Positions 15,656 to 29,051 are shown, numbered from the stretch's first letter. The stretch is 64,000 bases of DNA from Planctomycetota bacterium (GCA_028280785.1 JANQLF010000116.1:87377-151376), one strand, 5' to 3'. Notes: generated by a model from the letters alone, not told the origin. Numbers and translations are program-made.

Positions 15656-16672
15656 TCAAGGTTGGTAGGCGGGAAGTAATTGCCGGTCGAGGGTGAGTGC
15701 TAATACCGCGAGGGCAGTACGATAGACTTTACCATATTTACCTTCGTTGTCGCCGGGAGGAGTGTGCCACCATCCTTCTTTGTCTTGATGTGGTAATAAG
15801 GCATTATGCACATGCTTTTTATAGGTGTCTAAATAGTCAGGGAATGATCGGCCAAGTCCGGCGACGTCATAGTAAGCACGGTAAAAAAACCATGGGCCTT
15901 TCCATTCGATGGGATCGTTGCGAATGGCCGTAGCAATTGTTTTACTTAAATCGGTATCGGCTTCATTCTTTCGAATGGTGAGACACAATAATCCTACACC
16001 GCGAAGTGATGTGCGGGCAGCATTAACATCATTGTAGCCAACAGTGCCTTTTTTGGGATTACATAATTGGCGCGTATAGGTGATGCCTTTATTGATTGCT
16101 GACTCGGGCACTTCAAAGCCGGCGTGCTGAGCACCATGTAAACTAAGTAATTGCCATCCAGACAGTGACATGTCTGATTGATCACTGGTAGGATTATAAT
16201 GCCAACCACCACGAAATTTTTTGGCTTTCTTTACGTTTCCTGCTTGGACCGTAACTTCGATGGCGCGTGTTAACGCACTGCGAATTCGTGCTTCCATGTT
16301 TGGATCACCGGTCATGCCAATGCTTTCAGCAAGCATCAACGTACAGATACCATGGCCGTACATATTACTTTTATCACGTGCTCCAAAATAACCGGTACCA
16401 TCCTGCATTTGTAAAACAAAAGACAGTGATTTTTTTAACCAGGGGCCAACCTTGGTGTCGTGATAGGTTATTCCACTCGAAAGGTGCGCGTTAATACACA
16501 GTGCAGTCATGGCACAGCGATAATCACCATCCTGAATACTGCCATCTTCACGTTGTTGTGATTGCAACCATTTTAAAGCCTTATTTACCGCTTGATGACT
16601 TTTGTCCTGTTGCGGTAACTCAACGGCAAAAAGTAAACTTGAAAGTAAGGCGAGCAGACAAATGCGTATCAT
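15656..16672 (-). CDS. secreted prenyltransferase/squalene-oxidase-repeat (alpha-alpha toroid) protein
   Basis: It has a signal peptide and repeats of the type ALKWLQSQQREDGS, FVLQMQDGTGYF and DMSLSGWQLLSL. Its start is coupled by ATGA to the giant upstream gene. Confidence 0.7.
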   Translation of the reverse strand: MIRICLLALLSSLLFAVELPQQDKSHQAVNKALKWLQSQQREDGSIQDGDYRCAMTALCINAHLSSGITYHDTKVGPWLKKSLSFVLQMQDGTGYFGARDKSNMYGHGICTLMLAESIGMTGDPNMEARIRSALTRAIEVTVQAGNVKKAKKFRGGWHYNPTSDQSDMSLSGWQLLSLHGAQHAGFEVPESAINKGITYTRQLCNPKKGTVGYNDVNAARTSLRGVGLLCLTIRKNEADTDLSKTIATAIRNDPIEWKGPWFFYRAYYDVAGLGRSFPDYLDTYKKHVHNALLPHQDKEGWWHTPPGDNEGKYGKVYRTALAVLALTLDRQLLPAYQP

Positions 16673-19600
16673 GGTTCACTTGTGCCTATTTTATTGAAAT
16701 AATCAAATATTAATTGTTGTTGGTCATGGTTGTAGGCATCATAAAATTCATATTGAGAGCGCATTTCAATCAAAGCTCGACCATGTTGCCACTGTTGCTC
16801 ATAGCGCTTTTGATAATCATTCTGTGTAGTGTCAGATTGGTGTAAATCGGTGACTGTTTCTGAGTCGAGTGCATCGGCAACATGAATGCCTTGTTGTTGT
16901 AATAATCGAGATGCGTGGGCAAATGTAAGGTTGACTAATTGATCAGCTTGCTTCTGTAATGGATCGGGTAGGGCTAAATTTGGAGTGTTATTGTCAGCTT
17001 GATATGCTTGAATGGCATTGCGTAATTCATCAGCACTTTGCAGCATTGGAATATTCTGCCAAAATTTAACCGCCTTGCCGATGTGATCTTCGTTTGCTTG
17101 AGGGATGTTCTGTAAAACTAAAACACTGTCATCGAAGGCTAATTGACGAACGGTGAGATCAGCAATGAGAACACTTATGATTTGTGCTGTACTATCCCAG
17201 GTGTGCGTATTCACATCCATAAAATGATGATAATGATGGATGAGTGATAGTGTATCGAGGTGGATTAAATCTATTTTTGTGAGCATATGCAAAGCTGCAA
17301 TTTTATCGGCTTCATGGAGTGTTGTTAATGTTTGCTGACGTCCGGCACTCTGAATCCAGTAGGGCTGCATATGTTTATTGGCTTCTTTAACCGCGTTATT
17401 CCAGGTGCGAATAGATTTACTTTTTGGTATAATTTGCAATTCTACCGAGCGCTTCATAAAATTATTGCGTATACGTCGCGCATCATTCAGTTTTGTATTA
17501 ATGGCAGTCCAAAATGAATAAGCGGCTTTATTGGGTTCACTTTGATAACGTGACCAAACATAATTCATACTTCGGTCTAACACAGTTTCATGGGTCTGTA
17601 CATGTTGTTTGATTGAATCGATTAATTGTTCATTGGTTGTATGAATGGCATTCCGCAGGGAGATGAGCTTATTGAGCGTTTCAATTGAAAATTTATCTTC
17701 TGTTCCGTGTGTTGATAAGCGTCCTCGTGTATAATCGGCTTGTTCCTGACAATGTATAGCTATTTGGGCTTCAACTTTGAATAAAACTTTGACAAGTAAG
17801 AATGGTTTTTCGGCTTTGGCGTAGGCTGCAAATATTTCATCTTGTATTTTTTTCAAATCCTTGCCGAGAGATTGCCAACGTAACTGTTGTTTTGATCCGG
17901 TCTGGGTTTCTTTAAGACGTAGCATCAGTGCGTCTAATAATTTGTTATTGTCTTGAACATTTTTGTTATGACTACGGAGTACATCCTGTAGGGACGTTGT
18001 ATGTTGCTGGATTGCATTATGCAGTTCCTGCTGCCAACGATTCCAGGTCTTCCAATGTGGAGTTAAGTCTGGTGGGGCAGGAATGTTGTTCAATTGATTA
18101 AGTAACATGCTGTAATTTTTGTTGGAAATACTTTGTCCCTCATGAAGTTGTTGAGCCTGTTGGATGTATTTATCCTCATGAACCATCAAAGCGCTATAAA
18201 ATCGCTCAAGTGTAGATTTTTGTCCACGTAAAATGTTATGAGCATTTTTAACATATCGTTTTAGTTTTGATAGTTCAACGTTCTCTTCTTCGAAGTGTTT
18301 TTGTAACTCGAGTGCAAGTGATAGAGAGGAGAGACCCTCATTTTTACGGTTGTTAGTAAAGGCATATTCTGCATGTAGGAGCGCTATTTGCCAAACAGGA
18401 TTGAGTAAACGTCCGTGTATCTCTTTATTTGAAGCATGCTTCTGATTAAATTGTTCAAGTGTAGTTATTGGAGAACTGGCATTTTGTTTGTTAAACTGAT
18501 CCCATTTTTTAAGTATATTAACATCAATTTTATTCTTACTTGAACCATTATGGATAAGCATGGTGTGAAAATAATATTTAAAATGAGCGTAGTATGATGA
18601 AAAATAATCTCGCTTTTGTTTTAACCATAGGTCGTTTATGCGTAGTGTTGCAAATAATGATGTAGGTTGATGTATGTGCCATGTCTTACTTTGGCCATGT
18701 ATTTTTATAAGCATATCACGAAGGGCTGGCAGTTGCCAGATAACATTGTGATTGTCGATTTCCAAACCATTAATCTTATCTAACACATGTTGTGAAAGTT
18801 GATGGGCTATTTTCCAAGCTAAGTAACGTTCACCATAGCTTCGGTCGATTTCAGAAACTAGCTGGCTCTGATTGTTGTTGCTTACATGGTAGAGGCTGAC
18901 AGCTTGTTCTTTGAGGCGTTGTAAAAAACGATGGGTTTTGGCTATGTGCTCGTAGGGTAGACCCCAATCTTTGAGTGACTTGCTCATTTGTTCCATTAAA
19001 TAGATATGTAACACTAAATCATCAAATACGATATTTCGTTCTATTGGTAATTGCCAATTTTGCAGATGTGTTTTGATAATATGCCGGGCATCGTGAAAGT
19101 GATGAGATAGTCGAATCGGCTTCCATGTAAGGGCTTGATCCAATGCCCCATGTAGTGGAGAGGTGTCTAGATAGTCATTGTACGGTTTGCACGTTTTATT
19201 GAATGCTTGACCATGTCGGTGCAGATTAGAATCAGATAAATTGATCGCCCATTGGTGAATCGTCAATGATGTATCGATTATATCCTGTATGGCTGTTCTG
19301 CAGTCATCCCACTTGGCGTCTTTTTGAGGATAAATATTTAGCATATTATAAATAATATCATAAGACTTTTGATTTTGTATGGGACTACGCATTTTATATT
19401 TGATTATCGGTTCTAATTTCGCTCCCTTTAAGCCGGCTTTAATTGATAGTTTTGAGTCGCCTAGCCCTTGAAAGTATTGGATATTTATTTTGTGCCATCC
19501 TTGTTTGAGGGAGAGGCTGCTAGAATAATTGGTTTCTGCTTGCTCGGTCCAGGCTTTTTCAGAAATGATACTTTGTTCATCAATGGAGATTTGAATGCCG

Positions 19601-28001: not shown

Positions 28002-29009
28002 TTAGGAATCAAAGTGTTGAATTAATCGCTCTACAATTTTATCAGCATCAAGCCCTTCGGCTTGTGCAGCAAAGGTTAAAACGAGTCGGTGACGAAGTAC
28101 CGGTTTGGCGATCGCATGAATATCTTCGATACCAACATGGAATCGCCCATGCAATAATGCGCGCGCCTTGGCCCCGAGAATTAATTGTTGGCCAGCCCGC
28201 GGTCCAGCGCCCCATTGCAGATTATTGGTAACATTATCGATTGGTGCTACGCCAGGTCGTGTTGCTTGTACTATGTCGACCGCTTGGGCTAAAATTGGTT
28301 CGGCGACAGGAACGCTGCTTACTAATGACTGTAACTCAACAATTTCGTTAGCGTTAAACAACGGTTTTAAAGATTGTTTTTCATTTCCCGTGGTACGGCG
28401 TAAAATTTCAATTTCATCTTCACGATTTGGATAATTAATCGTGATCATAAACATGAAGCGATCGAGTTGTGCCTCAGGTAATTGATAGGTGCCTTCTTGT
28501 TCGATTGGATTTTGGGTAGCTAATACAAAAAATGGATCAGGTAACTCATAACTGCGACCACGTACGGTAACGCGTTGTTCCTGCATTGACTCTAACAAGG
28601 CTGCTTGCGTTTTAGGTGGCGTTCGATTAATTTCGTCCGCCAAGACCATGTTGGCAAATAATGGACCCGGTAAAAATTCGAATTGTCGACGATTGGTTTC
28701 GGGATCTTCTTGAATGATGTCCGTACCAGTGATATCGGTAGGCATGAGGTCTGGGGTAAACTGTACACGACCAAAACTCAAATCGAGCGTTTTGGCTAAG
28801 GTTTGAATCATCGTGGTTTTTGCCAAACCGGGAACGCCTTGCAGTAAGCAATGACCGCGGCAGAGCAGGCTTAAGAGCATCTGCTCAAGTGCGGCATCCT
28901 GACCAACAATGATTTTGTGAACTTCGTCGAGGATCTTTTGCCGGGCTTCACCAAGTCGGACGACTAATTCTGATTCTTTGGGAGATTCGGGGACGGTGGC
29001 TTCACTCAC
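28002..29009 (-). CDS. moxR: MoxR-family AAA+ ATPase
   Basis: It has Walker A (GVPGLAKT), Walker B (LADEINR) and TQNPIEQEGTYQLPEAQLDRF. The track start at 29024 is TTG. GTG 29009 lies 7 nt after a perfect GGAGGA (29022-29017) and is preferred. Confidence 0.9.
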   Translation of the reverse strand: MSEATVPESPKESELVVRLGEARQKILDEVHKIIVGQDAALEQMLLSLLCRGHCLLQGVPGLAKTTMIQTLAKTLDLSFGRVQFTPDLMPTDITGTDIIQEDPETNRRQFEFLPGPLFANMVLADEINRTPPKTQAALLESMQEQRVTVRGRSYELPDPFFVLATQNPIEQEGTYQLPEAQLDRFMFMITINYPNREDEIEILRRTTGNEKQSLKPLFNANEIVELQSLVSSVPVAEPILAQAVDIVQATRPGVAPIDNVTNNLQWGAGPRAGQQLILGAKARALLHGRFHVGIEDIHAIAKPVLRHRLVLTFAAQAEGLDADKIVERLIQHFDS

Positions 29010-29051
29010 GTTTGCTTCCTCCAAATACGCACACCAATACGTGTAAAAAAC

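Follow-up and report, generated by a model that had tools for sequence, protein, structure and literature searches.

How far does a MoxR operon extend, and do the proteins encoded at its far end work together with the MoxR ATPase? This question is raised by a cluster of six genes within a window of 64,000 nucleotides (nt) from a Planctomycetota bacterium (GCA_028280785.1, JANQLF010000116.1:87377-151376). The cluster encodes a MoxR ATPase, a DUF58 protein, a BatA-type membrane protein (gene 3), a second large membrane protein (gene 4), a giant membrane protein and an exported alpha/alpha toroid. Few bacterial gene clusters without a known mechanism are as widespread as MoxR-DUF58-BatA-type operons, and the phenotypes ascribed to them to date (aerotolerance, envelope integrity, stress, virulence) point to no substrate. 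Our analysis shows that the six-gene cluster is widespread in bacteria of the Planctomycetes-Verrucomicrobia-Chlamydiae (PVC) group, where databases annotate it automatically; it is undescribed in the literature searched. We give a probability of about one half to the reading that it is a PVC-lineage extension of the MoxR-proper/DUF58/BatA-type module and constitutes one MoxR/DUF58-assisted, glycan-contacting periplasmic assembly with a role in envelope integrity.

Organization of the six-gene cluster

Six open reading frames (ORFs) lie head-to-tail on the minus strand between positions 15656 and 29024. All coordinates given in the original prediction, which had been made from the sequence of the window, were correct. 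From the first gene to the last, the products (lengths in amino acids, aa) and the evidence for them are:

28002..29009, minus strand: MoxR-proper (MRP-type) AAA+ ATPase, 335 aa (PF07726, AAA_lid_2, Walker A/B)
27103..27996, minus strand: DUF58 protein, 297 aa, VWA-like fold, no transmembrane segment (PF01882, VWA_2)
24989..27103, minus strand: BatA-type membrane protein (gene 3), 704 aa (PF07584, TIGR02226, VWA_2, three transmembrane segments)
21852..24992, minus strand: gene 4, putative second membrane-anchored VWA protein, 1046 aa (family-level domain matches)
16669..21855, minus strand: giant with three N-terminal transmembrane segments and PA14, 1728 aa (PF07691, transmembrane segments, homologue alignment)
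15656..16672, minus strand: toroid, predicted secreted or periplasmic single (alpha/alpha)6 barrel, 338 aa (AlphaFold2 model, signal peptide)

The junctions, all read from the sequence, are as tight as had been claimed. The MoxR stop is followed by the DUF58 start after a gap of 5 nt (TAATCAACATG), the DUF58 and BatA genes overlap by 1 nt in a TAATG at 27103, and three ATGA overlaps link BatA to gene 4 (24989-24992), gene 4 to the giant (21852-21855) and the giant to the toroid (16669-16672). Such overlapping stop and start codons point to co-transcription and probably to translational coupling, supporting the view that the six genes form one co-transcribed operon in the source genome. They do not establish a fixed stoichiometry, and the "strict stoichiometric coupling" proposed for the cluster is overstated, since overlaps argue for co-transcription and co-translation, not for a fixed ratio.

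Two of the start codons could be refined. The MoxR ORF opens at a TTG (29024), with an alternative GTG at 29009. Since the latter is preceded by a GGAGG resembling a Shine-Dalgarno sequence, and since MoxR is present in the public protein collection solely as the 335-aa product of this GTG, 29009 is the likelier start. For the giant, the first ATG of the ORF is at 21885, from which the public entry of 1738 aa is translated; a second ATG follows at 21855 (1728 aa). The closest giant homologues begin at the position of the second ATG, which supports 21855 as the probable start, with a 1728-aa product and the ATGA overlap. Base composition shows no island-like discontinuity, and an Rfam scan of the whole window returned nothing at gathering thresholds. 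Scans for sigma-70 consensus promoters and intrinsic terminators inside the cluster gave counts equal to the shuffled expectation, which are uninformative on internal promoters.

Conservation and modularity of the cluster

A word-indexed homology search with the giant found three relatives only, at 34-37% identity; all three have the identical six-gene order and share the flanking synteny. More distant loci were reached via the toroid and gene 4 as anchors, after which hidden Markov models were iterated locally on the ORFs of each locus to give HMMER-derived alignments. In an exhaustive search of representative sequences with the first 900 aa of the giant, PA14-only matches dominated; genuine matches to the N-terminus made up about 45 of the best 150, which gives no more than a rough family size. 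The toroid has more than 150 homologues, 35-71% identical, in metagenome-assembled genomes (MAGs) of Planctomycetota and Verrucomicrobiota, where databases name it "terpene cyclase/mutase family" or "prenyltransferase/squalene oxidase repeat". A pattern scan with one genome per GTDB species located a toroid relative in at least 590 genomes. The best 80, among them Kolteria novifilia Pan216 and Chthoniobacter flavus Ellin428, come with few exceptions from Planctomycetota or Verrucomicrobiota, which supports a PVC distribution. Their identities do not exceed 48%, so that the lineage of the window lies outside the representatives scanned.

The last two genes are linked in all three close relatives, as predicted, and in distant relatives in part only. 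Among the 52 genome loci of the toroid with at least 6 kb of upstream sequence, the giant is directly upstream in 40 and is fragmented or permuted in about five more. The complete six-gene order was found in a Spartobacteria MAG (locus L064) and on metagenome contigs (e.g., L091, L117, L120, L128, L131 and L162). In a Verrucomicrobiales MAG (L026, 9854-20924) and a Limisphaerales MAG (L030, 462-11695), the order is toroid-MoxR-DUF58-BatA-gene 4-giant, a rearrangement that keeps the toroid within the cluster. The order anticipated across PVC genomes is thus preserved in the three closest relatives, in L064 and in the metagenome loci, whereas many relatives hold partial sets. When metagenome contigs were scanned in turn with gene 4 as the anchor, the following frequencies were obtained, the denominators being loci with enough flanking sequence:

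BatA upstream of gene 4: 46/52 loci
DUF58 upstream of gene 4: 28/37 loci
MoxR upstream of gene 4: 26/37 loci
Giant downstream of gene 4: 33/55 loci
Toroid downstream of gene 4: 12/22 loci

The overlaps recur as well. Between BatA and gene 4 a -4 overlap, with an in-frame start on the upstream stop, is possible in 50 of 78 loci; the giant and toroid genes could overlap in this way in 35 of 63 loci and by 1 nt in eight more (together 43/63). Of the four downstream junctions, that between gene 4 and the giant is the least tight: the gap measures 21-100 nt in 27/71 loci and more than 100 nt in 7/71. Because the same order and overlap type recur in dozens of independent loci, the organization of the cluster is beyond chance. 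Collectively, these data support a genuine and repeatedly retained functional association of all six families, arranged as three evolutionarily separable sub-modules, MoxR-DUF58, BatA-gene 4 and giant-toroid, of which the last is the tightest pair.

This modularity bears directly on the idea of a single assembly, and the following breaks in linkage weigh against it. No giant lies within 10 kb of the toroid in seven loci, though these toroids may be paralogues. On the gene-4 side, 22 of the 55 loci show no giant within at least 3 kb downstream, and MoxR and DUF58 were not seen upstream in 11/37 and 9/37, respectively. One locus (L009) carries BatA-gene 4-giant-toroid right after ychF, with no MoxR or DUF58, and two others (L005 and L006) carry the giant and toroid alone. 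The cluster thus breaks in relatives at exactly the two sub-module boundaries, one of them the loose gene 4/giant junction. These breaks could mean that three independent units share one transcript, namely a general chaperone pair, a Cmd-like envelope pair and a periplasmic glycan-binding or glycan-processing pair, with no single complex and with MoxR not acting on the giant or the toroid. However, the three units co-occur at a much higher frequency than expected of unrelated genes, in two phyla and with proteins that are 20-30% identical; the toroid stays beside MoxR even where the order is rearranged (L026 and L030), and the junctions of the window all overlap or nearly so. Independence of the units is the strongest competitor of the single assembly, though we consider it somewhat unlikely.

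MoxR, DUF58 and the membrane proteins of genes 3 and 4

The assignments of the first two genes were confirmed above Pfam cut-offs. MoxR matches PF07726 AAA_3 with 211.3 bits over profile positions 1-131 of 131 and PF17863 AAA_lid_2 with 62.8 bits, and its translation shows a Walker A (GVPGLAKT) and a Walker B (LADEINR). The DUF58 protein matches PF01882 with 154.8 bits (cut-off 23.4) and VWA_2 with 39.7 bits, and a scan for transmembrane segments detected no hydrophobic segment in it. Since neither protein has an export signal or a transmembrane segment, both are placed in the cytoplasm, where the DUF58 protein is presumed to be the partner or adaptor of MoxR.

The product of gene 3 carries the BatA N-terminal and VWA domains expected of it (PF07584 BatA, 56 bits; TIGR02226 two_anch, 76.5 bits; VWA_2, 31.6 bits), the VWA_2 match being just over the cut-off. 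Its hydrophobic segments (7-25, 57-75 and 674-692) correspond to an N-terminal double transmembrane region and a C-terminal anchor. The loop between the two N-terminal helices is very rich in Arg, the tail past the C-terminal helix is short and, besides the VWA domain, the protein has a large presumed extracytoplasmic region.

Gene 4 had also been proposed to encode a VWA membrane protein, and this holds at the level of the family but not of the window protein alone, which gives no Pfam VWA match at E <= 0.01 and only sub-threshold matches to PA14 (18.2 bits), GLEYA and DUF7408. Among 22 homologues, VWA PF00092 was matched in 15, DUF7408 in 12, PA14 in seven (counted at E <= 0.01, best E 5.8e-12), GATase1_like and ThuA in six each, and MG2 in four. 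In the alignment of 22 members D84, S88 and M89 are invariant and S86 nearly so, which corresponds to the DxSxS of a metal ion-dependent adhesion site (MIDAS; VIDQSSSM in the window). A C-terminal motif DESWRWR is equally conspicuous, W832-R833-W834-R835 being invariant. The window copy further comprises a PA14-like insert (~489-597), a GATase1-like/ThuA-like/DUF7408 region and a C-terminal transmembrane segment. Given the VWA matches of the family and the invariant MIDAS residues, gene 4 probably encodes a second membrane-anchored VWA protein, a family-level assignment, with a putative non-catalytic amidotransferase-like scaffold domain. Despite their common domain types, the products of genes 3 and 4 were not called paralogues, as BLASTP found no significant similarity between them.

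Relationship to known MoxR operons

Genes 1-4 of the window have the arrangement and the kinds of domain that characterize MoxR operons of the Bat/Cmd class. They are Bat-like in this respect, as originally described, but do not form a canonical Bat operon, because no BatC TPR, BatD or BatE/SH3 family is found among the Pfam matches of the six window proteins. Two operons serve best for comparison: the BatI aerotolerance operon of Bacteroides fragilis (Tang 1999) and the RL3499-RL3502 (cmdA-D) operon of Rhizobium leguminosarum (Vanderlinde et al. 2011, J Bacteriol 193:2684, as cited in PMC5700661 and PMC3893208), whose two large membrane proteins are reportedly of the TIGR02226 double-transmembrane/VWA/GATase1-like kind.

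Like the cluster in the window, BatI and its spirochaete homologues (Leptospira, PMC3557215; Borrelia bb0170-bb0176, PMC5700661) combine MoxR, DUF58 and BatA-N VWA proteins in one operon. They then continue with BatB, BatC (TPR), BatD and BatE (SH3) and, in contrast to the window, have no gene-4-type GATase1-like protein, giant or toroid. The cmd operon, likened here by its description only, shows the same order as window genes 1-4 (an MRP-type MoxR, DUF58, then two large membrane proteins) but stops at four genes, and no DUF4175-like giant, PA14 or toroid gene is described with it. Its mutants have envelope and cell-morphology defects, as cited in PMC5700661 and PMC3893208. Two further kinds of MoxR system differ from the cluster in architecture: the MoxR-vWA-YebA transglutaminase degradation system (PMC3495828), which belongs to another operon and whose TGL protein has no counterpart in the window cluster, and the MoxR-vWA-beta-propeller conflict systems. 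For the extension by the giant and the toroid, no description was found in the literature searched.

The giant protein

The giant was predicted to be a PA14-bearing membrane protein, which proved correct. Its three hydrophobic helices (27-45, 57-75 and 158-176), the third preceded by a basic QKKRKQ stretch, lie at the N-terminus, and its sole Pfam match is PA14 (PF07691, residues 706-819, 44.3 bits, cut-off 24). A profile search of the PDB likewise matched the PA14 of RsgI3 (6qe7, E 2e-12). An AlphaFold2 (AF2) model of residues 1-1200, run on a four-sequence alignment, is of low confidence (predicted local distance difference test, pLDDT, 57) and was used for the layout of secondary structure only. 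In this layout, residues ~190-497 form three beta-sandwich domains and residues ~500-681 a long helical bundle, after which come PA14 (~705-809) and helices up to residue 1200. The C-terminal ~900 aa are helical and lineage-variable. Conservation within the family is confined to the N-terminal ~650-870 aa; the long C-terminal extension is lineage-specific in sequence yet always there, and total lengths range from ~1200 to 2500 aa.

The guess that the giant is a DUF4175 protein stands only transitively. The window giant itself matches neither PF13779 (DUF4175) nor TIGR02302, even at E <= 1, but three homologues exceed the PF13779 cut-off of 27.3 bits (L145, 51.2; L081, 36.4; L117, 31.8 bits). 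Their matches span only profile positions ~175-465 of 825, and the matching segments align to residues ~260-500 of the window giant, that is, to the beta-sandwich region. With DUF4175/TIGR02302 proteins the giant shares N-terminal transmembrane helices followed by a long, presumably extracytoplasmic region; it differs from them in being about double their length and in having PA14 and the ~900-aa helical extension. To our knowledge, no function has been assigned to DUF4175. In the literature searched, the domain came up only for AdvA, a division protein of Acinetobacter, in its N-terminal region (PMC7481262).

In eleven loci (L106, L109, L113, L117, L120, L124, L139, L145, L146, L147 and L150) a conserved ORF of ~250 aa without a Pfam family, such as L117:12060-12830, lies between the giant and the toroid. 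These loci belong to a distant clade, in which gene 4 is only ~25% identical and the giant only ~1200 aa long. This ORF may represent a seventh component or a split-off piece of the giant C-terminal region.

The toroid protein

The secreted alpha/alpha toroid foreseen in the original prediction is well supported. An AF2 model built on a 27-sequence alignment is a single (alpha/alpha)6 barrel with a pLDDT of 94.6 and a predicted template modelling (TM) score of 0.90. The window protein has a Sec-type signal peptide, QW-like repeats and no lipobox; a Sec-type signal-peptide-like hydrophobic N-terminus is present in 27/27 homologues and a lipobox-like pattern in 1/27. Residues H107, W157, Y159, D167, W173, Y264, Y267, Y268 and Q296 are invariant, and D100 and Q174 nearly so. 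The nearly invariant LPxYQ[RP] at the extreme C-terminus makes up the last residues of the protein, which suggests a docking peptide or a sorting signal.

The annotation as a prenyltransferase or squalene oxidase is another matter. No Pfam or NCBIfam family is reached above cut-off, the best profile scores being sub-threshold (PF13243 SQHop_cyclase_C, 22.2 against a cut-off of 26.1; PF00432 Prenyltrans, 18.1 against 26.5; TIGR01787, 19 against 322.7). A class II terpene cyclase or squalene-hopene cyclase (SHC) was rejected on account of these scores, of the missing DxDD (absent in 27/27 homologues) and of the fold, a single 338-aa barrel rather than a two-domain beta-gamma structure. A protein prenyltransferase beta subunit was also dismissed, PF00432 being below cut-off and Cys, one of the Asp/Cys/His Zn ligands of these enzymes, reaching 85% of the sequences in none of the columns of the 27-sequence alignment. 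Since the catalytic motifs are missing, "prenyltransferase/squalene-oxidase repeat" describes the fold of this protein and not its function, and the name cannot be taken as a functional identity.

A Foldseek search against the PDB gave generic matches only, namely 8pak (a single-domain SHC-like protein), AprG, GH76 mannanases, MstE and MmpH, with TM scores of ~0.6, identities of 11-15% and root-mean-square deviations of 4.5-7 Å. Compared with the single-domain (alpha/alpha)6 toroids among them (8pak, MstE, GH76 and AprG), the window toroid has the same overall barrel fold and QW-like repeats, but it is exported, paired with a giant membrane protein and devoid of their catalytic motifs. Such neighbours could still be taken to mean that the toroid is an enzyme, either a periplasmic glycoside hydrolase or lyase or a class-II-type terpene cyclase, for which the giant and the VWA proteins would serve as scaffold in an operon that modifies a polysaccharide or lipid. 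Its invariant polar and aromatic residues (e.g., D167, H107 and W157, together with the nearly invariant D100 and Q174) and the PA14 carbohydrate-binding modules in both neighbouring proteins would suit this explanation. On the other hand, the structural matches are weak, and neither a known family, nor DxDD, a GH76-like adjacent Asp pair or a conserved Cys column was recognized; export, moreover, is unsuited to a terpene cyclase, whose isoprenoid diphosphate substrates would be in the cytoplasm or the membrane. We therefore regard an enzymatic toroid as quite unlikely.

A relationship with immunity or protease-trap systems was also considered, in which the cluster would serve conflict or defence like the ternary MoxR-vWA-beta-propeller systems, or would be an alpha2-macroglobulin-like protease trap composed of MG-like domains and a thioester-domain-like toroid. 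MoxR has a secondary match to PF20030 bpMoxR (39.5 bits), the MG2 matches occur in four gene-4 homologues, and the toroid aligns weakly with the alpha2-macroglobulin thioester domain 6tav (TMq 0.51). Nevertheless, bpMoxR scores 39.5 bits against 211 for AAA_3, and no beta-propeller appears among the Pfam matches. The thioester motif CxEQ is absent in 27/27 toroid homologues, and the toroid was rejected as a thioester domain on this ground and for the weakness of the 6tav match. The closest relatives show stable chromosomal synteny with housekeeping-type neighbours, and the window has no island-like shift in composition. PADLOC matched none of the six proteins, so that a known anti-phage defence system was rejected, and a defence or trap function in general appears highly improbable.

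Proposed membrane topology and a model for a possible assembly

Where could a cytoplasmic ATPase contact this set of proteins? The membrane orientation proposed here rests on charge distribution and on analogy with characterized and described BatA-type proteins. In gene 3, the Arg-rich loop between the N-terminal helices and the short C-terminal tail place the VWA and scaffold domains probably outside the cytoplasm. The description of TIGR02226 fits an extracytoplasmic position of the domains that follow the double transmembrane region. This orientation also agrees with the BatA-domain protein BB0173, whose VWA domain was experimentally shown to be periplasmic (PMC5700661). For the giant, about 1550 residues would be periplasmic, and the ~80-aa segment 80-157 between the second and third helices would be cytoplasmic. 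Since MoxR and DUF58 are cytoplasmic, the VWA domains predicted to be periplasmic cannot be direct partners of MoxR, and the only candidate contact points for MoxR would be DUF58 and the short cytoplasmic loops.

On this basis, a model with three parts can be drawn. MoxR and DUF58 would form a cytoplasmic AAA+ chaperone with a VWA-like adaptor. The BatA-type protein and the product of gene 4 would be inner-membrane proteins anchored at both ends, with their VWA-MIDAS and GATase1-like domains in the periplasm. The giant, held by its three N-terminal helices, would extend a periplasmic arm of ~1550 residues, composed of the beta-sandwiches, the helical bundle, a putatively glycan-binding PA14 and the variable helical stretch, and the toroid would be a soluble exported barrel. 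A single periplasmic assembly, anchored in the inner membrane, could be built or acted on by the four extracytoplasmic proteins. Its contact with an envelope glycan would be made by the PA14 modules and by the toroid cavity with its lining of aromatic residues, while the MIDAS sites of both VWA proteins might hold partner proteins. MoxR/DUF58 may aid assembly or turnover from the cytoplasm via the Arg-rich double-transmembrane loop and, in the giant, the loop of ~80 aa. The physiological role would lie in envelope integrity or morphology, if the analogy with the cmd operon of Rhizobium holds.

To the breaks in linkage must be added three points on the same side of the balance: the classical MoxR-VWA contact cannot involve the VWA domains of BatA and gene 4, which are predicted to be periplasmic; the model of the giant is of low confidence; and neither Foldseek nor the motif checks let an active site or a ligand be assigned to the toroid. 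What the sequences show directly is the gene content, the domains, the hydrophobic segments and the conservation of linkage and overlaps; that the proteins form a complex, that it binds a glycan, what MoxR acts on and which phenotype results are what we infer. The one envelope-spanning complex remodelled by MoxR that had been deduced from the window is, in the same way, a plausible interpretation rather than a finding, since the cluster splits into three sub-modules in many relatives. A bolder version would make the giant-toroid pair and the two VWA proteins a PVC-specific, AAA+-powered trans-envelope tether or sensor, whose ~1550-residue arm and docked toroid bind peptidoglycan or an outer-layer glycan and whose state is driven by MoxR/DUF58 via the cytoplasmic loops. 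We consider this version doubtful; if true, it would be a previously undescribed apparatus and would give Bat/Cmd-type MoxR operons a concrete substrate.

Neighbouring genes

Divergent from MoxR and separated from it by a very short intergenic space is a gene for an extracytoplasmic function (ECF) sigma factor (29052-29711, plus strand; Sigma70_r2/r4_2/ECF). It overlaps by 4 nt the gene for a 422-aa protein (29708-30976, plus strand) without a Pfam match, which has an anti-sigma-like acidic N-terminus and one transmembrane helix at ~114-132. The pair is kept at this position only in the closest relatives (L002 and L003), not in distant loci, and could regulate the operon in this lineage. Directly past the toroid gene, a convergent 264-aa ORF (14720-15514, plus strand) has no Pfam family; L001-L003 and L172 have it in the same place, with His_Phos_1 and glyoxalase genes next to it, a synteny confined to the closest relatives.

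A short-chain dehydrogenase (31710-32603, minus strand) and an FAD_binding_4/ALO oxidase (32438-33793, minus strand) are neighbours, and the two also flank the cluster in L002 and L003; this pair resembles the DprE2/DprE1 epimerase pair. The overlap of the two ORFs as listed is probably a start-codon artefact. Further away, two tandem overlapping genes (38986-42420 and 42413-45892, both on the minus strand) encode proteins of ~1150 aa each with a Ser/Thr protein kinase domain and a long C-terminal region, one of them with TPR repeats; they lie in the part of the window with the lowest GC fraction, ~0.40. In L009, a locus of Planctomycetota type, the toroid is followed, with overlapping stop and start codons, by a 544-aa DUF6056 membrane protein (L009:11002-12636), weakly annotated as GT_STM0557_N-like and not kept in other loci. 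If glycosyltransferase-like, this protein would hint at a link to glycan synthesis.

Significance for MoxR operons

In the PVC version of the operon, the MoxR module is joined by the giant and the toroid, both of them conserved and strongly linked, which makes these proteins candidate clients or co-components. Should the units prove independent, the practical value of this analysis would be limited to better annotation. If, instead, linkage reflects a physical assembly, the cluster would offer biochemistry a defined set of six proteins with a probable glycan ligand as a handle, and would provide the first genomic context both for DUF4175 and for a toroid family that is currently misnamed "terpene cyclase/mutase".

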